64,000 nt of DNA. Source: Desulfobacterales bacterium. GTDB taxonomy: Bacteria > Desulfobacterota > Desulfobacteria > Desulfobacterales > UBA5852. Location of the stretch: assembly GCA_963674755.2 (NCBI GenBank), contig CAXXVS010000002.1:704001-768000 (forward strand), given 5' to 3'. Numbering within the stretch: the first letter of the stretch is position 1; every line of letters begins with the position of its first letter. Shown here piece after piece: positions 1 to 8,110 of the stretch. The position numbers and the translations under genes are program-made. Under the pieces are notes generated by a model. The model had not been told where the DNA came from, ran no database searches, and worked only from the letters and a program-made list of their open reading frames with translations.

Positions 1-1057
1 CGCCCGCATCGAGCACCTGGATGATGCGCCGGACCGGCTTGGTGATGGATCTGATGAAAATGAATCCGATGATTCCCCCCAGAAGACAGGCGATGACCGT
101 GACCACGATGGCGGACCATCGCGCGCCGGATCCGGTTGAACGCATGCGCTCTTTCGCCGTTGTCTGAATCTGAGTCATGCGATCGATAATGCCACCAAGT
201 TTCACCTTGACCGCATCAATGGCGGCGACAGTATCGGTATTGAGGATCTCGTGAGCTTTCGCCTGGGCGGCATCAATGGCCTCTTCCGCCTCGATGACCG
301 TCTGGAAGTGATTTTGAACCTGTTCCAGGGCCGGGATGGTCACGGTCTTATAAAGCGCGACGCTCCGGGCATAATCCCCCTGCCGCACCGAGGCGGCGAT
401 GCTGCCGGCGGATGCATGCAGCTTTTCATGGGGGCCTTTGATCGCCTCCATCGCGGAGCGCAGTTCAGGAAAATCCTGCGCATACCGTTCATATTCCCCG
501 CTTGACAGGAATTTCCCCAGTCCGCAAAGGTGATGATCCAGTTGCACTTTGCGATCGGGATTGCGCTCGATGACGATCAGCGCGACCTGCGCCGCCCATT
601 GACGGTGGGCGTCCAGCAGGTCCTTTAATTTGATCAGCAGTCCGTCATGCCGCTGCCGCCACGTTTTTTTGATGGCCATGCCGGAATCATGGAGGCGTTT
701 GTGAGGCGCTTTGATCTCATTCAAAAGAGCCGCGAGTTCGGGGTCGCTTTTGGCTAATTTCTCAGCCTCCTCTCCATAAAGGAATTTGCCGAGGCCGCAT
801 TGGGTGTGATCAAGCTCAACCTCAAGGGTTTTGGCGTTTTCCATGAACATGTCTTCAACGCTGGCCAACCAACTAAGATGATCCGCTTCCTTCTCAAGCA
901 GAAAAGCCTGGCGATCCGCTGCATCGGAAAACTGGTTGCTGGATGAAAGGATGTTGTTGATGGACCAGATGGAACTGGCCGCGACAATCCCGACCGCCAA
1001 CAGCAACAAACCGGTGAAGCCCCATAGTTTCGTACCGAGCTTGTATCGCTTTCGCAT
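1..1057 (-). CDS. Methyl-accepting chemotaxis protein (5' part, runs off window) with two tandem CZB domains between TM1 and TM2
   Basis: Hand translation from ATG 1057 (SD GGAGAGG): MRKRYKLGTKLWGF-TM; DHLSW..DHTQCGLGKFLY..PHKRLH; AHRQW..DHHLCGLGKFL..PHEKLH; second TM then RSITKPVRRII (HAMP start). Not in ORF track because no stop is in the window; the signalling domain itself lies outside the window. Confidence 0.85.
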   Translation of the reverse strand, partial: MRKRYKLGTKLWGFTGLLLLAVGIVAASSIWSINNILSSSNQFSDAADRQAFLLEKEADHLSWLASVEDMFMENAKTLEVELDHTQCGLGKFLYGEEAEKLAKSDPELAALLNEIKAPHKRLHDSGMAIKKTWRQRHDGLLIKLKDLLDAHRQWAAQVALIVIERNPDRKVQLDHHLCGLGKFLSSGEYERYAQDFPELRSAMEAIKGPHEKLHASAGSIAASVRQGDYARSVALYKTVTIPALEQVQNHFQTVIEAEEAIDAAQAKAHEILNTDTVAAIDAVKVKLGGIIDRMTQIQTTAKERMRSTGSGARWSAIVVTVIACLLGGIIGFIFIRSITKPVRRIIQVLDAG

Positions 1058-1549
1058 GATATTTTTACCTCTCCCGCGAGTCTGATGGTGGGTACAAGCG
1101 GCGGGTTGCCCGCCAGCCGGCTTAACGGTCCGTCATTGCAACGGACCTGAGTGTTTCGTGTTTCGCCCGTTTTTAGGAAAAACATTAGGAAAATTGAGAT
1201 CTCCGGGAAATCCCAACGAAAAACTAACAATGGAGAAAACGGCGGGGAATGGGGAGTTGGAAGGCCGGGTGTCGACCGGGACAAATTTTCTGCTTTCCAA
1301 CCCGTTAAGGGAAGGGTGGAAGGCAATGAGGTCGCTTTGGGAAACGGTCGCCGGGGTAAACCGCTTCCCATGCAATGGCGCCTGCAAGACACCTCCCAGA
1401 TGCCGCCGGAGCTGGCCGAAAAGCGCCTTTTTCCGGGCGAGTCTCCCCGGCTTAGCCGGGGGGTTACCCAGGTCAATTATGGTTGAATATGCATAAAAAA
1501 TATGACCTCTGGGGAATGGTGGTTTGAGGTCCGGAAGAGAGTAGGTATG

Positions 1550-1591
1550 CCGTATTTTTGCAGGGGAGCTGGTACTTGTCTCTCGTGGCTA
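1550..1591. repeat. 42-bp direct repeat, copy 1
   Basis: ccgtatttttgcaggggagctggtacttgtctctcgtggcta; copy 2 at 2620-2661 differs at 2 positions. Confidence 0.95.
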
Positions 1592-1614
1592 TGTGAACTG
1601 CAACAGTGAACAGT

Positions 1615-1836
1615 TCAATTTCTTAAAATTACACCGATAAACATGATTAAAGAGGCAACAAAGCACATAGAGATCCCAATTATTAATATGTTCCCGTATT
1701 CTTCTACGCGTCTGGCTCTTCGCTTTTCCTTTTTTCCAGTCCAATTGAACCAGCCGTTATAATAAGATAACCCCCAAATTCCTCCCCCAAAAGAAATTAG
1801 AGTTTCAATAATATTTATAATTGTAGAGGAATCCAT
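1615..1836 (-). CDS. Small 2-TM membrane protein, cassette-like
   Basis: AT-rich ORF with two hydrophobic segments; ATG 1836 lies 13 nt beyond the attC R' box. Confidence 0.65.
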   Translation of the reverse strand: MDSSTIINIIETLISFGGGIWGLSYYNGWFNWTGKKEKRRARRVEEYGNILIIGISMCFVASLIMFIGVILRN

Positions 1837-1848
1837 ATAATATTTTTC

Positions 1849-1911
1849 ACATATCACTTAGCTGTGTGGTTGTGCGGGTGTTTGCGCATCCACACCAGCG
1901 CCATGTTGTGC
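1849..1911 (-). mobile_element. Integron attC site (63 bp, degenerate R')
   Basis: Minus strand: R'' GCACAAC-5nt-L'' GCTGGTGT...L' ACACAGC-5nt-R' GATATGT; L''/L' pair with one extrahelical base, inner TGCG/CGCA stem. Confidence 0.8.
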
Positions 1912-2282
1912 TTTTTTGGTAGCATCTTTTCTATTTCGAAGCCTTAATCCAACAAACCCACTTATAAGGATAACAGGCAATGATAAAACCATAATAAATA
2001 AAATCTCAAAACCCCAAAGATTCCTATCGATGCTCACATCAGTTATTGCATCAGCATATATTCCGAAAGGAATCAAAATATATATTATTGCAGGACAAAG
2101 TAACGGGATATTGGAGTCTTTACAGATAATATCAATACAACTGGTAAAATGATGATTACCAGAAAAAGTATCGTGCCTGTGATTGTGTCGGATACAGCAT
2201 TCAAATAGAAACCGATAGAGAATCCAACTGTTGCAGAGACTACCCAAATCACTATTGAAAGATAAATTTTCTTATTTTTCAT
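1858..2282 (-). pseudogene. Frameshifted ~4-TM membrane protein cassette gene
   Basis: ORF 2085-2282 (N-half) and ORF 1858-2247 (C-half) join at ...TPISRYF/CPAIIYIL near 2100; the C-half reads through the attC to TAA at 1858. Confidence 0.65.
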
Positions 2283-2290
2283 ATTTCAGA

Positions 2291-2345
2291 GTACAACTAA
2301 TGATTAACAGGAATTTATGCCGAATATTGAATATTGGCGGAAATT
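2291..2345 (-). mobile_element. attI-like recombination site
   Basis: Minus strand ...aatattcggcataaattcctgttaatcattaGTTGTAC, 8 nt before ATG 2282; GTTGTAC matches the complement of this cassette's own R'' (GTTGTGC) at 6/7. Confidence 0.45.
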
Positions 2346-2366
2346 TGGTTTTAGCCCGACCTTAGC

Positions 2367-2564
2367 TTAGGCATCGTGAATGATTTTTGGCAGTATATAT
2401 TTGCCGTCTTTAATGTATACTATGCCTTGTTCTACGTATTGGTCCATGAGGCTGAAAAACAGATCTTCATCGCTGCGTGGATCATTGGGATAACTTTTTC
2501 GGTATTCATCTATTGCGTGCTTAATGAAAGCCACCCAATTTTGTTTATCTGTTTTATCCTGCAT
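2367..2564 (-). CDS. Hypothetical 65-aa protein
   Basis: AT-rich ORF co-oriented with its neighbours and bounded by junction motifs. Confidence 0.6.
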   Translation of the reverse strand: MQDKTDKQNWVAFIKHAIDEYRKSYPNDPRSDEDLFFSLMDQYVEQGIVYIKDGKYILPKIIHDA

Positions 2565-2619
2565 AAAATAGTTCGGTCACTACTAAAGATTAGAGGTTAA
2601 GGGCGTCCCCTCGATTCTC

Positions 2620-2661
2620 CCGTATTTTTGCAGGGGAGCTGGTACTTTTCTATCGTGGCTA
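2620..2661. repeat. 42-bp direct repeat, copy 2
   Basis: ccgtatttttgcaggggagctggtacttttctatcgtggcta. Confidence 0.95.
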
Positions 2662-2700
2662 AGCTATATTTATATATGAATGGACGTCCCTAGAACGGCC

Positions 2701-3369
2701 CTATTCAGTTTCAAAATGCGGCGATATAATATCCCATAAATCACCTATTAATGTATCATAGTCCTCTTTTGATTTGATGTTGGCAAAACGCATCTTTACA
2801 CCTTGTAGCTCTCTATAACTAATAAAACAGGCAGCAGTGGCGGAAATTCGATCGAAATAAATAATTCTAGCATGGATAGTAATCCTGCGTAAAGTCTCAA
2901 ATAAAATAACATTAAAAATGATTGCCATTAAAATGAGTAGATAATTAGCAGTAATTTTGGAAATGGATTTTAATCGCCTTGCCGTCTCCTCATCTACAGC
3001 TTGATTAAAAGCCTTTATATCTTTAATGTCCATTCCCGCATCCATTTCCTGGGATATCTTTTGCCTGAATTCCTCCTTAAAATTATCATGCAAAGCTAAG
3101 CGAGCTACAAAGCTGAGACCAATTGAGAAAAAAAAGAACGTCAATAATAAGATGATCTGTTGGCCATAAAATGCTGACCGCCTTGCAACCTGACGATATA
3201 AAGAGTTTTGTAACTTTTTAATACCTAGTGTGGAAATCCGGCCCAAAGTATTAATTAGTTTTTTTGATGGGTCCTCAAGCACTAAATTCCAAAGACCACT
3301 ACCTAAAGCCCCTAAAATAATTGTGCCCAGTATTCCACCAATCCACAATAAAGACGTCGGTATTTCCAC
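2701..3369 (-). CDS. Hypothetical 3-TM membrane protein (222 aa)
   Basis: Long AT-rich ORF, three hydrophobic helices, GGGGGA SD before GTG. Confidence 0.8.
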   Translation of the reverse strand: MEIPTSLLWIGGILGTIILGALGSGLWNLVLEDPSKKLINTLGRISTLGIKKLQNSLYRQVARRSAFYGQQIILLLTFFFFSIGLSFVARLALHDNFKEEFRQKISQEMDAGMDIKDIKAFNQAVDEETARRLKSISKITANYLLILMAIIFNVILFETLRRITIHARIIYFDRISATAACFISYRELQGVKMRFANIKSKEDYDTLIGDLWDIISPHFETE

Positions 3370-3511
3370 TAATTAATCCCCCGCTATTCGTTAAAAATAA
3401 TCGATCCTATACGGGAAATGGTATTTTGCGGCGTCTGGGTCTGATAGCCATTTGGTTATTGAATCCATAATTTAAAACAAATATTATTGCGAATAATTAA
3501 TAATTAAGATG

Positions 3512-3545
3512 CGACCCTATTCAGTTCCCGACCCTATTCAGTTCC
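3512..3545. repeat. Tandem 17-bp duplication cgaccctattcagttcc x2; related copy at 2696-2710
   Basis: Direct reading; 2696-2710 cggccctattcagtt matches 14/15. Confidence 0.95.
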
Positions 3546-3564
3546 TCCTCCAGAATGGTTCATC

Positions 3565-5334
3565 TTAGGCGTTTATAAGCTCATCAATTTGATCAAAAAG
3601 TAATCTAAAACTTTGAAACTCAGAAGCATCAACATTGTCAACTAATTTTTCAGCGAATTCGGTTTTGTTTTTCTTTCTAATACCAAAAATATTTGAGTCA
3701 GGTGCAATTTTGTCACCCTTCAATTTATATTTATTAATAATCTTATTATCAAAATAATGTTCTAGTACTAAATATCTATGAATTATTTTACCCCCAACAA
3801 AGTCAATCCTAATATCGGGAACAGGTAAAATTAGACCATAAATTTTCTTTTTTTTATGTTTTCGATAAATCTTACTCAAAGCGTGATCGTGAAATATCTT
3901 TTTGCTTAAACCCTTAAACTGTTCATTGCCTTCACGATCATTGTCAAAAAGTCCAATAATTGTTTTTGCATCATCAATCATTGGAGAAATAAGTTCTATA
4001 GATCTTTTAACCTGATCTGCATTCCCATCGCTTTCATTAAAACACAGATACACACCTGAAGGATATATCTCATAAGGAATAGTATGGTTAGGATGTAGCT
4101 TATACCAAGCCTTTTCAATTAACAGTTTATCAGTTTTTCCTTCGACTATAATTATTGGCGCAGAATATGTTTTTATTTTTTCTGCCAATAATTCTTTTTC
4201 CTTAACGATATTTCGATAATCTTGAATAAATTCCTTCTGTGCTAATAATATTCCAAGTTCATCATATAATTTTAGCTTAGTTTCATTTTTAAATAGATTT
4301 TCCATATTTTCTAACTGAGTTGACCCATAATTATCCTTAACCAACTTAAAAATTTCAGGAACATTTTTGATATTTTCAGGGGGATTTATAAATGCAAGAG
4401 AATGTGTCGTCAAAAATATTTGATTAGATGTTGAATAGTCATTAAAAAACAGTCGGGCCAATTTATCTGCCAAGCCAAATTCTAAAGAGTTTTCAGGCTC
4501 ATCAATACCCCAGATAAACTCCTTAGTTTTATCATTGTTGTCCAACCATTTCAACAGTGGTGGAATATATTTGCTTTTTAAGCCTTCTCCACGATTCAAT
4601 AATGATATGAAAAATTGAGAAGGGTTCAATTTCTTTTTGCTATTGCTTCCCTTGATTTCAAGATTAAGTCTTTCAAATTGTTCATACGATGTGTTGACAG
4701 TTAATTTTTGCCAAAAATCTGAAAGCAATGTTGGCAATCCGAAATTAGTTCCAATATGTATTTCAGACTTATTTAGGATCTCTTTAAGGTCCTTAGTTTT
4801 ATCAGAAATATTATTGTTTAAAGACATAATATCTTGATCAGTTATAAGTTGCTGCTCTCCAATAAGGGAAAGGAGATATTGTAAAACAAATTCTCCTTTT
4901 AATGCCGGGATATAAACATATTTAATTTTGTTTATTATCCGTTTAATAGAGGTCTTCTTTTTTATATCATCGGTACTAAACCGTTCTGATCGTTCCCCTG
5001 CTCGATCATACTGTCTCTCAATAAAAACATTCTTTTCATCGGACAAGCTTATATACGTTGCTGGTGGGTTTAAAAATAACCTTATTCTTATAAGTTGCTT
5101 CATTTTTGTAGAGCGGGTGGCTTTAGCCCTAGAAACTTTATTGTAATCATCTTCAAATTTAAGCGGTTTAAAAAAATCTGTCTGATTGTTAAAAAATAAA
5201 TTTAATGCTTTTAAAATATTTGATTTACCAATATCATTAGACCCTGAAAATACATTGATCTCTTTAACTTCAAAAGATACACTTTCAATTGACCTGAAAC
5301 TATTAATTTCAATTTTATTTATTAGGTCATTCAT
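3565..5334 (-). CDS. OLD-family-like ABC ATPase + TOPRIM nuclease, candidate defence protein
   Basis: IEINSFRSI N-terminus, Walker A GSNDIGKS, Walker B IDEPENSL, H-loop LTTHS, TOPRIM IIVEGKTD and FDND. Confidence 0.85.
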   Translation of the reverse strand: MNDLINKIEINSFRSIESVSFEVKEINVFSGSNDIGKSNILKALNLFFNNQTDFFKPLKFEDDYNKVSRAKATRSTKMKQLIRIRLFLNPPATYISLSDEKNVFIERQYDRAGERSERFSTDDIKKKTSIKRIINKIKYVYIPALKGEFVLQYLLSLIGEQQLITDQDIMSLNNNISDKTKDLKEILNKSEIHIGTNFGLPTLLSDFWQKLTVNTSYEQFERLNLEIKGSNSKKKLNPSQFFISLLNRGEGLKSKYIPPLLKWLDNNDKTKEFIWGIDEPENSLEFGLADKLARLFFNDYSTSNQIFLTTHSLAFINPPENIKNVPEIFKLVKDNYGSTQLENMENLFKNETKLKLYDELGILLAQKEFIQDYRNIVKEKELLAEKIKTYSAPIIIVEGKTDKLLIEKAWYKLHPNHTIPYEIYPSGVYLCFNESDGNADQVKRSIELISPMIDDAKTIIGLFDNDREGNEQFKGLSKKIFHDHALSKIYRKHKKKKIYGLILPVPDIRIDFVGGKIIHRYLVLEHYFDNKIINKYKLKGDKIAPDSNIFGIRKKNKTEFAEKLVDNVDASEFQSFRLLFDQIDELINA

Positions 5335-5387
5335 AAATTTTTCATTTCTGATAATCTGATTGTCAAAAAGGCTTGTGATAGTTTTGA

Positions 5388-5738
5388 TTATATTTCACTC
5401 TGGCTAATATCTTCTGCGAAAACATCTATGTGCTGTTTGTTATTGTGAGCACAACCACAAAAAAAGGCAGTTCCCGGTTGGTTTATCGTTATTGAAAGTG
5501 TTTTTTCGGTTTCGGCCAGGACTGATTGTTTTATTGCCGAGTCCTGGGAATCGGCGATGGCTGGTTTTATTTGTGGGGCTGGGATCTGGGTGGAGATGGG
5601 GGTTTGGGTTACTGATAGCGGGATGGTCGCGAGTATTAGGACTGTAGCCAGTTTGAGGTAGTGGCTTTGGGGTTTGGATATGGGTTTGGCCTCTTTGAAA
5701 AGCCTTTCCACGCGGGCTTCTATGGTAGCGGGGTCCAT
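5388..5738 (-). CDS. Hypothetical exported protein, possibly a truncated remnant
   Basis: GGAGGT SD before ATG 5738; hydrophobic stretch, then Pro/Gln/Thr-rich linker and FFCGC. Confidence 0.4.
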   Translation of the reverse strand: MDPATIEARVERLFKEAKPISKPQSHYLKLATVLILATIPLSVTQTPISTQIPAPQIKPAIADSQDSAIKQSVLAETEKTLSITINQPGTAFFCGCAHNNKQHIDVFAEDISQSEI

Positions 5739-5925
5739 GCATACCTCCACATCAGATTAATGGTTTGAGGTATCTTATCGTTTGGACCGCGTTGCGCGGG
5801 TATGACGAGGAGCCGGCTTTTGAGATGTATCAGCAGGGGATCGCGAGAACACTACCAAAATCGACGCTGAAATGCAAATTTTTGCATCAATTTCGAAAGG
5901 AATTGGAGTAAGTGGCAAAAAGTGT

Positions 5926-6001
5926 TGGTGCCCCCGGCAAGAATCGAACTTGCGGCACATGGATTAGGAATCCAATGCTCTATCCACTGAGCTACGGGGG
6001 C
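5926..6001 (-). tRNA. tRNA-Arg(CCT)
   Basis: GCCCCCGTAGCTCAGTGGATAGAGCA...TTCCTAA...GTTCGATTC...GGGGGCACCA cloverleaf. Confidence 0.97.
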
Positions 6002-6139
6002 TTGGAAGTGCTGTAGAGGTCCTGCGGATACCAGATTGCGGGATTTTATGCAAGCCCTCAGAACCCCTTAAATCAGGTCGCATAGATACATTCCCTAAGC
6101 CATTTGTTGAAGCGCCGGCCATTATGGCTGCAATCCAAT

Positions 6140-6187
6140 AAAAGACAAAGGCCCCACCGTGAATACGGCGGAGCCTTTGTCTTTTTG
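6140..6187. terminator. Bidirectional intrinsic terminator
   Basis: aaaagacaaagg...cctttgtcttttt stem with A/T tails. Confidence 0.75.
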
Positions 6188-6219
6188 TCAGAATTTACGA
6201 TTGCGTCAAAGCCACCAAG

Positions 6220-6738
6220 TTATTTTGGAGGCAGCTTATAAGATCCAGTGACTTTGACCACCTGATCTCCTTTGGTCACTTTGTTGTAAGGGGTAATGTA
6301 GTAGCCGGAAAACGAAAAATCCCCTTCAATACCTTCATACGCTCCGGTCCCTTTATTCCATCTACCTGTACCTTCAAGGGCCGGCATCTTTTTGCCCTTG
6401 GGTATCCCTACGGTCAGCGTCCATTTGGAAAATGCTTGGGATTTGTCCATAAAGGTCAAATCCGAATAGCCTTCGCAAGGGCCCATCCCTTTTGATACAT
6501 CACAAGTGTAACTTGTGTGATAAGCAGCCACTCTGCCATCCTCAAAGTTTGCCACCCCCCTACGCTCGCCAAGCATGAGCACATGCCCCTCGGCATCGGC
6601 CAAGGGGATGGTTTCAACCTTGGTTACATAGGAGTCGATCGTAAAATTTATCTCTTCTGCCCAGGCGAAACTTGAAGCAATACCCAAAGTGAAAATTATG
6701 GCTGCGGCAAAAACAATAGATTTAAACGTTGTTTTCAT
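6220..6738 (-). CDS. Secreted beta-rich hypothetical protein
   Basis: Signal peptide MKTTFKSIVFAAAIIF..AWA; GTGAYEGIEG motif. Confidence 0.8.
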   Translation of the reverse strand: MKTTFKSIVFAAAIIFTLGIASSFAWAEEINFTIDSYVTKVETIPLADAEGHVLMLGERRGVANFEDGRVAAYHTSYTCDVSKGMGPCEGYSDLTFMDKSQAFSKWTLTVGIPKGKKMPALEGTGRWNKGTGAYEGIEGDFSFSGYYITPYNKVTKGDQVVKVTGSYKLPPK

Positions 6739-6831
6739 CGATATCACCCCTTATGTTTCTATCCACGTAAAGGCCGGCTATCGCAACTAATGAATGGTTC
6801 GATAAGGATTACCGTCCTTACAATACCCATG

Positions 6832-7155
6832 CTATTTGGGCAGCGCCATGCCGAGCATGCCAAGGGCCTCTTCGACACTCCAGTTGATTTCGATCGTATA
6901 TTCGAACCCCGGAATCGTTTGAAACATTATCATGAAATCGGTCAGTCGTTTTAGAGCACCCTCCAGCTTACCCTCCTTTACCTCCAGGACACCCATGACT
7001 TTGAGCCCTTGATTTGTCGATTTAACGGCGGCCGGAATGAGCTCCTTAACCTGGTTCTCATCGACAGGGTGTTTTTGTAAGGCTTCAAAATACCTTTCGG
7101 CAACCTGCGTGGCTATATCACTGGGATAGGTCGATGTTGTGACAAGGTAAGGCAT
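6832..7155 (-). CDS. Hypothetical protein (107 aa)
   Basis: AAGGAGG SD before ATG 7155; globular composition. Confidence 0.75.
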   Translation of the reverse strand: MPYLVTTSTYPSDIATQVAERYFEALQKHPVDENQVKELIPAAVKSTNQGLKVMGVLEVKEGKLEGALKRLTDFMIMFQTIPGFEYTIEINWSVEEALGMLGMALPK

Positions 7156-7467
7156 GATGACCTCCTTTGGCTTCATAGATGGGTAGGAAGGATGAATTTG
7201 CAGTGAACCTTTCGTTCCCAAAGCCCCCAGAGGCAGGTCACCCCTGGAGGCCACGTAAAGGCAGTTTCAGGTGCCCTCGTATCATGGCCCTATCCTTTGT
7301 TAAGACAAATTTTGCCGGCTTTTTGGTGGGGGTTTTGATGGTTCAGCAGGTGTGGATCAAGCAGAGGATGTGAATTCTGGGGCGGGTTTAAAATAATTCG
7401 TGATTTAGAGGCAGGGCATGTCGTGCGTCGGATTTATTGCCTGTAAACCAAGTCGTATCAGGCTGTC

Positions 7468-7510
7468 AAATAGAAATGTGGCTCCCACTGTTCTTATCAG
7501 CAGGAGCCAT
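7468..7510 (-). terminator. Probable intrinsic terminator
   Basis: tggctcc...ggagcca stem with T-rich tail on the minus strand. Confidence 0.45.
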
Positions 7511-7553
7511 CTCGGGCCGGCGGCGTGGAAAATTTTCAGCACAGAAAGATTGA

Positions 7554-7859
7554 TCAGAGCCTGAACCTCCGCTCCTCCAGCGGCTGTTCCTCATCATCAC
7601 GATTATACGAAAAGGCGATCTGGGGGGTGGTGCTCCTGAGCATCATGGTGCCGATTATCGCGAGCAGGATTCCGACAAGTAGGCCGGCAATAGAGGACCA
7701 CTTTTTCCTCTCAATAAGCCTGTGGGCATTGAAGCCTCCAAGGCTGCCGGATGCATGTAGGCCAAAATTTCTGGTAAAGGATTGCTCCTCAGCGATCAGA
7801 ACGTCGCCGGCGACTGCAAGCTTATGGTAGTTATTGACCCCTCCAGGAAAGCCAAGCAC
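7554..7859 (-). CDS. Small hypothetical membrane protein
   Basis: ORF with one TM helix, 11 nt downstream of the preceding ORF. Confidence 0.4.
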   Translation of the reverse strand: MLGFPGGVNNYHKLAVAGDVLIAEEQSFTRNFGLHASGSLGGFNAHRLIERKKWSSIAGLLVGILLAIIGTMMLRSTTPQIAFSYNRDDEEQPLEERRFRL

Positions 7860-7870
7860 ACCCAGGACGA

Positions 7871-8110
7871 TTACACGCTTCTGATCGCATTAAACTCCTT
7901 GCGAACGGTTTCATAGTCAACGGCACCGGACGGCAATTTAGAACCACAGGGTCTTAAAAGAGCTGACCAAAAGCTTTCCTTTACCGCATACGCGTAGGCA
8001 TCCAATCCCATACCTCCGAAGGGCCCCTTCGGGATGATTAAGGCTCTTTTCTTTCCAAGCATCTGTAGTATCTTATCGCCAATGCTGGGATCTGGGATTT
8101 TAATCGTCAA
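7871..8110 (-). CDS. Hypothetical protein (79 aa)
   Basis: ORF with AAGG SD, co-oriented with neighbours. Confidence 0.55.
   Translation of the reverse strand: MTIKIPDPSIGDKILQMLGKKRALIIPKGPFGGMGLDAYAYAVKESFWSALLRPCGSKLPSGAVDYETVRKEFNAIRSV

Follow-up and report, generated by a model that had tools for sequence, protein, structure and literature searches.

We investigated a recurring GC-rich core that punctuates a short gene array (2341-3565) in a 64-kb stretch of a Desulfobacterales genome (GCA_963674755.2; 6.7 Mb in three contigs, here C1 to C3). The stretch, called the window throughout, is C2:704001-768000, and coordinates without a contig prefix refer to it. As judged from sequence matches, the core forms the outer end, or tip, of terminal inverted repeats (TIRs), which stand on both sides of genes for IS200-like Y1/HUH tyrosine transposases with a DnaA_C-like helix-turn-helix (HTH). 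We consider it probable, with good confidence, that the array carries solo copies of the TIRs of TIRtron-type elements, placed at the downstream ends of accessory-gene modules, and that the enzymes are encoded elsewhere. An earlier note on this DNA had proposed that the cores mark a new, non-integron gene-capture system. The motif proved to be, in part, a real signal, and a new capture system is not supported, as the repeats are of the TIRtron/TIRYT kind described in 2013 (PMC3733652, in the passages drawn on here), and no circular or excised cassette form was seen.

The GC-rich cores and the repeats that contain them

Each of the six strings listed in the earlier note was present where it had been placed (2357, 2604, 2685, 2696, 3512 and 3529). 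Read on the minus strand, which is that of the genes, the core is GGG(G)WCG. The consensus under which the strings had been gathered, CG(A/T)CC(C)T, was too loosely written, since G stands at position 3 in one instance, and the run of Cs is four long in another and two long in a third. Over the 64-kb window the strict core CGWCCCT has 13 matches where 16.5 would be expected, and 13 or more were obtained in 82 of 100 shuffles. Within 2341-3565 it occurs three times on the plus strand and never on the minus strand, against 0.10 expected (three is reached in none of 1000 first-order Markov simulations), and the looser pattern of the earlier note occurs five times against 0.40 expected (none of 1000 simulations), in a local test that is post hoc and in which two of the counted instances are tandem duplicates of each other. 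An excess was thus found in the array, but not across the window, where the motif is at expectation. As a real signal, the motif is supported for the five instances that form part of longer repeats, and not for that at 2357. The junctions lie close to stop codons much as had been described, at 5 nucleotides (nt), overlapping the stop, or at 30-47 nt.

The five instances resolve into three TIR families, all on the minus strand. A solo TIR of family F1 (GGGTCGCATCTTAATTATTAATTAT on the gene strand) occupies 3493-3517, with no mismatches to the 25-nt core of the family, and its tip is the CGACCCT at 3512. The instance at 3529 is a 17-nt tandem duplicate of the F1 tip plus its flank, so that two tandem copies of this flank-and-tip unit (GGAACTGAATAGGGTCG on the gene strand) fill 3512-3545. 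The 17-mer CGRCCCTATTCAGTTYC is found three times in the window, at 2696, 3512 and 3529; the third copy (2696-2712, 88% identical) supplies the TAG stop codon of the open reading frame (ORF) at 2701-3369. A solo TIR of family F3 (GGGACGTCCATTCATA) lies at 2675-2690, with the tip CGTCCCT at 2685, and one of family F2 (GGGGACGCCCTTAAC) at 2596-2610, with the tip CGTCCCCT at 2604; these 15-16-mers have further copies in the genome. Each family is represented in the array by one solo copy, co-oriented with the genes.

The sixth instance, CGACCT on the plus strand at 2357-2362, belongs to no repeat family. It lies just outside a repeated promoter-like segment, whose paralogous copies at C2:2428910, C2:1188905 and C2:1566199 have no tip at that place, and we treated it as a chance occurrence. 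The segment itself, of about 55 nt and containing a near-palindrome (CCAATAT..ATATTGG), is found at 2295-2351, C2:2428910-2428966, C2:1188905-1188955 and C2:1566199-1566236, upstream of unrelated small ORFs in four AT-rich islands.

Transposase genes, repeat families and related systems

We identified inverted F1 copies, 1018-1118 nt apart, at nine or more loci of other genomes among the matches listed. In all three of these loci that were scanned with Pfam the pair encloses an ORF of 319-327 amino acids (aa) with a Y1_Tnp domain (PF01797) and a Bac_DnaA_C-like HTH; the enclosed proteins score just under the cut-off of the NCBIfam model for REP-associated tyrosine transposases. Among six F1 elements whose ends were read, the 3' TIR ends in AAT(A/G)(A/G)TTAATAATTAA, and TTGACA stands just inside the 5' TIR in five. 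The enclosed gene ends within the 3' TIR in the three elements with ORFs listed. No target-site duplications were seen by eye at three complete F1 elements (L110, L053 and L046).

Within the genome under study, a Y1_Tnp query gave 12 matches, none of them in C2:704001-768000, and there are at least ten paralogues. Six of eight paralogues examined have flanking inverted repeats of their own that start with GGG(G)ACG or GGGGTCA. Of those scanned, four of four contain Y1_Tnp and three of four Bac_DnaA_C, several of the scores behind the Bac_DnaA_C assignments being below the Pfam cut-off. Inverted repeats of the form GGGGACGCCCTT... (F2), with the same tip as at 2596-2610, flank the Y1_Tnp genes at C1:1285445 and C3:764740. 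The F3 sequence flanks the Y1_Tnp gene at C1:626353, where the upstream repeat is exact over the 16-nt core and the downstream arm differs within it. In an alignment of the three window copies with seven transposase-flanking repeats, GGG and C are invariant and are followed by an AT-rich arm. The resemblance to ends near Y1/HUH (RAYT-like) transposase genes, to which the earlier note had pointed, is therefore borne out, the same repeats flanking Y1_Tnp genes in inverted orientation.

About 19 copies of the 25-nt F1 core were found in the genome. Some are singlets; others pair up in inverted doublets, about 123 nt long, with a stem of 22-25 base pairs when folded. At set mismatch limits the families number 15 (F1), 8 (F2a), 6 (F2b), 4 (F3), 2 (F4), 17 (F5) and 31 (F6) copies. 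Doublets lie at C1:727-729 kb, C2:1564 kb and C2:1572 kb, and groups in the window and at C2:1652-1654 kb. In a scan of one genome per species, a 21-nt F1 core was letter-perfect in at least 126 stretches of other genomes. Among the matches listed, and with taxa as named in the records, these are mostly metagenome-assembled genomes of Desulfobacterales and Desulfobulbales, together with single records named Pirellulales, Brocadiaceae, Nitrospirota, Patescibacteria and Geobacteraceae. The exactness of the core across many genomes, in several phyla by these names, suggests horizontal spread, and not purely vertical descent.

The group at C2:1652300-1654400 (L176 2300-4400) is a second mosaic, in which tips of F5 (three), F2 (one) and F3 (one) are co-oriented around an AT-rich gene of 288 aa; it also holds two N-terminal fragments of a TIRYT gene, one of them cut exactly by the F3 TIR.

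A feature of F1 copies that we term stutter is a tandem duplication just outside the TIR. It has a period of 10-20 nt and takes in the local flank together with 3-7 bases from the start of the tip. Scored as an exact 8-mer repeated within 45 nt, it is present in 11 of 128 F1 copies of other genomes (among the matches listed) and in two of 15 in this genome, against one and none of 128 for controls placed elsewhere. The sites are 3512-3545 in the window, C1:1288430-1288480, and loci L043, L068, L079, L083, L091, L093, L099, L110, L125 and L146. About half of the duplicates end right after GGGTCG, and the stutter may be a footprint of strand cleavage or rejoining at that point.

Inside the F1 tip of the window, 3370-3492 (minus strand) is a truncated 5' fragment of a repeated small ORF, 76-77% identical to C2:1187381-1187503, C2:1189219-1189341 and C1:1288332-1288480. 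The unit, here class B, consists of an F1 tip and a GC-richer ORF of 78 aa from no known family, present mostly as 5' fragments of 19-51 codons with several per genome. Its sites are L002 7380-7700 and 9215-9560, C1:1288275-1288470 and window 3370-3528, and fragments of the small ORF were found in seven of 31 genomes searched, this genome counted. Against the antisense of TIRYT genes, the class B interior matches only over the last 10-15 codons, weakly (E 0.1-0.2).

Passages of Di Nocera 2013 (PMC3733652) deal with RAYT-like genes that have long TIRs, and not REPs, on their two sides, and name them TIRtrons and TIRYTs; some TIRtron TIRs are said there to share GGGGWSAS, and the TIRs to form moderately abundant families with single, dimeric or grouped copies. 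According to parts of Quentin 2018 (PMC6006769), most TIRYTs fall in TnpA_REP subclass 2.1, which carries Bac_DnaA_C or a related HTH (HTH_23, HTH_28). The elements identified here are alike in having a Y1/HUH gene between long inverted repeats with tips starting GGGG, a C-terminal Bac_DnaA_C-like HTH in the repeat-flanked proteins, as in subclass 2.1, and repeats dispersed in moderate number as single, dimeric and grouped copies. The tips GGGGTCGC, GGGGACGC and GGGACGTC agree with GGGGWSAS at positions 1-6, position 7 being G and not A. On the gene, its domains, the inverted arrangement and the dispersal of the repeats, we assign them to the TIRtron/TIRYT kind, equated with TnpA_REP subclass 2.1, which are known but little-studied transposons of single-stranded DNA. 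Unlike TIRtrons, the window has only solo tips, of three families, with no transposase gene, and F1 is without a cognate gene in this genome. The tips here also coincide with borders of accessory-gene modules and with breakpoints in relatives, which is not described for TIRtrons in the passages of PMC3733652 and PMC6006769 drawn on here.

Classical REP/RAYT repeats, which are palindromes of 20-40 nt with GTAG, were considered and rejected, as the three TIRs have no GTAG and their singlets are not self-complementary, only the doublets folding. REP/REPIN repeats, in the work of Nunvar in 2010 and of Bertels and Rainey in 2011, reportedly flank RAYT genes and spread intergenically, and are thought to be moved in trans. 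Like them, the repeats here are short sequences flanking a gene for a single-strand-DNA tyrosine transposase, with intergenic singlets and inverted doublets. Unlike them, they occur in tens rather than hundreds of copies, have many transposase paralogues per genome and, for F1, a core that is letter-perfect across many genomes. Elements of the IS200/IS605 type, with subterminal hairpins in place of TIRs and the transposase inside, were likewise rejected, as the ends here are inverted repeats and the window copies contain no transposase. In IS91/ISCR, an HUH enzyme can carry adjacent genes in one-ended events, leaving polarised cargo beside a single conserved end; the enzyme family and the ends are different here, and nothing in our data shows one-ended transposition.

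Module borders, breakpoints and competing explanations

One module is a segment of 1028 nt (1592-2619, minus strand) that holds three small ORFs (1615-1857, 2085-2282 and 2367-2564, all on the minus strand), ends in the F2 tip and stands between two 42-nt direct repeats. It splits a repeated unit of 146 nt, which is uninterrupted at C2:698599-698744 and whose two parts in the window overlap by the 42-nt repeat. The first partial unit (1473-1591, plus strand) is 97.5% identical to C2:698599-698716 and contains the first 42-nt copy at 1550-1591; the second (2620-2693, plus strand) is 92% identical to C2:698675-698744, contains the other copy at 2620-2661 and ends in the F3 TIR. The inner border of the insert is GAGAATCGA plus the F2 tip. 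The F2 junction AGAATCGAGGGGACGCC is found again at C2:1188780, where it interrupts a class B unit and has different DNA behind it.

We compared window 1-7300 with contigs of two related organisms, B (X4) and C (X6), both from short-read assemblies. The flank is about 90% identical in B (862-1231) and about 93% in C (862-1584), and the flank on the other side about 91% in B (5446-5954) and about 92% in C (5542-5954). The module is 98-99% identical in B (1524-2391 and 2382-2621) and about 99% in C (1562-2604). The contig of B diverges at 2621, 11 nt outside the F2 tip, and that of C at 2604, inside the tip. In B the order is 5954..5446, then 3314 other letters, then 3526..3413, and then a joint to 2621 onward; the 3314 letters replace 3527-5445, with a break 9 nt outside the F1 tip, and B accordingly lacks the OLD-family gene (3565-5334) and the segment with the 222-aa ORF (2701-3369). 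Three of the five distinct breakpoints (2604, 2621 and 3526) thus lie within 11 nt of a TIR tip, a count to be read with the caveat that homology to a repeat necessarily stops at the edge of the repeat. At the DNA level, synteny searches in 30 GTDB relatives together with this genome matched only the tRNA and a few short repeats. The tRNA-Arg loci of four of them (G004, G001, G010 and G003) share nothing else with the island, so that they offer no empty-site comparison.

Module borders and inter-strain breakpoints gather at the tips, as is shown in part, and the gene modules of the island differ between related organisms. By analogy with the enzyme family, the tips would be single-strand cleavage sites of TIRYT enzymes. 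The solo TIRs would then be non-autonomous remnants or module ends, moved or cut on single-stranded DNA by TIRYTs in trans, and the tips, offering both cleavage sites and short stretches of homology, would collect module boundaries and rearrangement breakpoints. For the island itself, normal turnover of DNA at a hotspot beside a tRNA gene is the probable origin. The literature names TIRYT elements but has yet to test how they work, where they cut and what they do to genomes. A candidate for the cleavage point is offered by the tip common to three TIR families, with the recurrent flank-and-tip duplication: it would lie at GGG(G)WCG or directly behind it. In this variable island beside a tRNA gene, the edges of accessory and defence-type gene modules are marked by solo tips, and related organisms differ there. 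If the tips are active points of exchange, accessory genes would have, besides integrons, another way of being shuffled through single-stranded DNA; if they are not, puzzling GC-rich words in AT-rich islands are explained as ordinary transposon ends.

Several observations weigh against our reading of the tips as TIRtron ends acted on from elsewhere. The earlier note was right that the window has no Y1 transposase gene (none of the 12 genome matches falls inside it), and because none is encoded there an enzyme would have to act in trans, as it had also supposed. No cognate transposase gene of F1 was found in the genome, the best paralogue being 38% identical to an F1-flanked protein, and the mobility of F1 here is therefore unproven. 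The tips read GGGGWCGY and so depart at position 7 from the published GGGGWSAS, a motif given for "some TIRs". Across all families, solo TIRs show no bias in replication-strand position (24 lagging versus 17 leading, p=0.35), and their orientation relative to the upstream ORF (24 same versus 15 opposite, p=0.2, by crude stop-to-stop frames of at least 80 aa, with two of 41 solo TIRs lacking an ORF) is not significant, so the co-orientation in the window is no general rule; the exception is F1, with 10 of 11 singlets placed behind an ORF of the same orientation. HUH transposition is not known to leave a direct repeat such as that of 42 nt around 1592-2619. The contigs of the relatives are short-read assemblies, read over their aligned parts. 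Of the five breakpoints, 3413 and 5446 lie away from any tip, and the comparison of relatives proposed in the earlier note bears out its idea in part.

An integron origin was also considered. In the genome, a single intact integron integrase (415 bits; the cut-off is 265) is encoded upstream of its cassettes and in the same orientation (L015, C2:2324001-2342000), and at least three decayed copies adjoin AT-rich cassette arrays (at loci including L006, L174 and L175). A covariance model of attC (R1), built from eight attCs of this genome with arrays L174 and L175 held out, finds attCs in all four integrase-adjacent arrays, with 11 matches in the two held-out arrays. It has no match at E up to 1 in the 64-kb window or at L002 and L003, and a motif-plus-hairpin scan of the window for attC was also negative. 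The statement that the cores are not canonical attC sites is upheld by these results. With TIGR02249 the window gave only sub-threshold XerC/D-like matches, which lie some 18 kb away from the array (C2:725793-726503; 74.7 and 51.2 bits, the cut-off being 265). The array resembles attC arrays in that every co-oriented gene is followed by a repeat, in many cases one that overlaps the stop codon, and in its single-strand-DNA logic; TIR doublets of the kind found here also lie inside the genome's true integron cassette arrays. It is unlike them in lacking the R''/R' box order, any match to the genome's attC model and an adjoining integron integrase.

In a separate observation, several consecutive cassettes at C1:726-729 kb are separated by F1 doublets, in a gap without canonical attC. 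What looks like a stray cassette lies about 5 kb upstream of the window, at C2:698599-699030 (L001 8599-9030): behind the uninterrupted 146-nt unit come an AT-rich fragment from the C-terminus of a GNAT-like ORF and a single canonical attC (40 bits).

Among the explanations that compete with solo TIRtron ends, the first is HUH-driven cassette exchange, a concrete form of the idea in the earlier note, in which a TIRYT would cut two equivalent co-oriented tips on one strand, and a circle of tip plus cargo would leave and re-enter at another tip, amounting to integron-like capture by a Y1 enzyme. It would account for the five real instances all pointing the same way as the genes, for the ORFs that run into the F1 flank and tip (which has stops in all three frames), and for the F2-tipped junction that interrupts two unrelated repeats, the 146-nt unit and class B at C2:1188780, with different inner DNA. 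It would also fit a module that is 98-99% identical in two organisms, against 90-94% for its flanks, with contigs diverging at the tip, the F1 doublets that fill inter-cassette gaps of a true integron array, the co-orientation of F1 singlets and the recurrence of the stutter. We nonetheless hold such exchange to be unlikely, since neither a circle nor a clean tip-to-tip deletion was seen, the other end of the module (1592) has no tip, the tips come from three families, each presumably with its own enzyme, and the all-family orientation bias is not significant. The source sample has a low-depth joint, 2690->3491 (depth 2, side 21), that is too weak to use; in it complete F1 and F3 TIRs are linked, whereas exchange would predict a different product. 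Solo co-oriented tips and repeat-edge breakpoints are, moreover, also expected from independent short non-autonomous insertions and from recombination at repeats. A similarly low probability attaches to its wider form, a Y1/HUH system at work beside integrons and inside their arrays in sulfate-reducer-type genomes, with the stutter as its footprint.

Accretion by tyrosine integrases at tRNA-Arg(CCT), with the junctions as att copies of successive integrations and the 42-nt repeat as an attL/attR pair, is very unlikely. The island does lie on the 3' side of that tRNA, the tRNA-Arg locus of G010, another species of the genus, also has an AT-rich stretch there, the 42-nt repeat brackets 1592-2619 with an uninterrupted target copy at C2:698599-698744, and similar class B arrays start right after tyrosine-integrase genes or 3' fragments (C2:1183917-1186155, C1:1291586-1291897). 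No integrase is present in or beside the island, however, no other copy of the tRNA 3' end turned up in 1-5925 to serve as a far border, and the match of the cores to Y1 transposase TIRs would be left unexplained. Even less credible is a decayed integron array without its integrase, the cores being degenerate attC boxes: the integrase and its fragments beside AT-rich arrays, the F1 and F6 doublets inside those arrays and a lone attC about 220 nt from the paralogous 146-nt unit speak for it, and the negative attC model and hairpin scans, with tips that do not follow the AAC...GTT order of attC boxes, speak against it. Chance clustering of a short GC-rich word in AT-rich DNA we give almost no credence. 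In its favour, the 7-mer is no commoner than expected when the whole window is counted, the consensus was defined with the data in view and the instance at 2357 is without support, but no simulation reached the local count and five instances extend to 15-25-nt matches with repeat families, which refutes chance for five of the six.

The AT-rich island and its surroundings

In the GC profile, the array lies in an AT-rich island of about 4 kb (approximately 1500-5445), with 26-42% GC against 50-60% around it, adjoining the 3' side of the tRNA-Arg(CCT) gene (5926-6001, minus strand; identified by ARAGORN, and at 69 bits by Rfam). Every plausible gene of the island is on the minus strand. Outside the module these are the 222-aa ORF (2701-3369), cargo for which no Pfam or PADLOC match above threshold was found, and a gene of 589 aa for an OLD-family ATPase-Toprim protein (3565-5334), also cargo. 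The product of the latter matches Pfam AAA_15, AAA_21, DUF2813 and, weakly, Toprim; its best PADLOC models are AriA, NsnB, ATPase-Toprim_I-B and GajA, and the Old model was also matched. It is a candidate defence gene, and has no obvious partner gene adjoining. The 78-aa small ORF and a 65-aa ORF matched no Pfam family above threshold. An Rfam scan of window 1-8000 returned the tRNA only, and five related loci gave no Rfam match at E up to 0.1.

A copy of the 3' half of the tRNA-Arg(CCT) gene, 46 nt long and 100% identical, is located 1.26 Mb from the gene at C2:1972153-1972198, and may be the far att site of an integrated element. Two AT-rich co-oriented arrays each start right after a tyrosine integrase gene, or 3' fragment of one, that ends in ...HTNINLHRGIVENLP (L002 3917-6155, C2:1183917-1186155; L003 8586-8897, C1:1291586-1291897). 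With 44 bits, where the cut-off is 265, the integrase falls outside the integron type, and the cargo of the two arrays includes proteins that resemble TIR-domain proteins (the protein domain of that name) and RNase H, MqsR/MqsA with a SecB-like gene, and ABC-three-component-like proteins.

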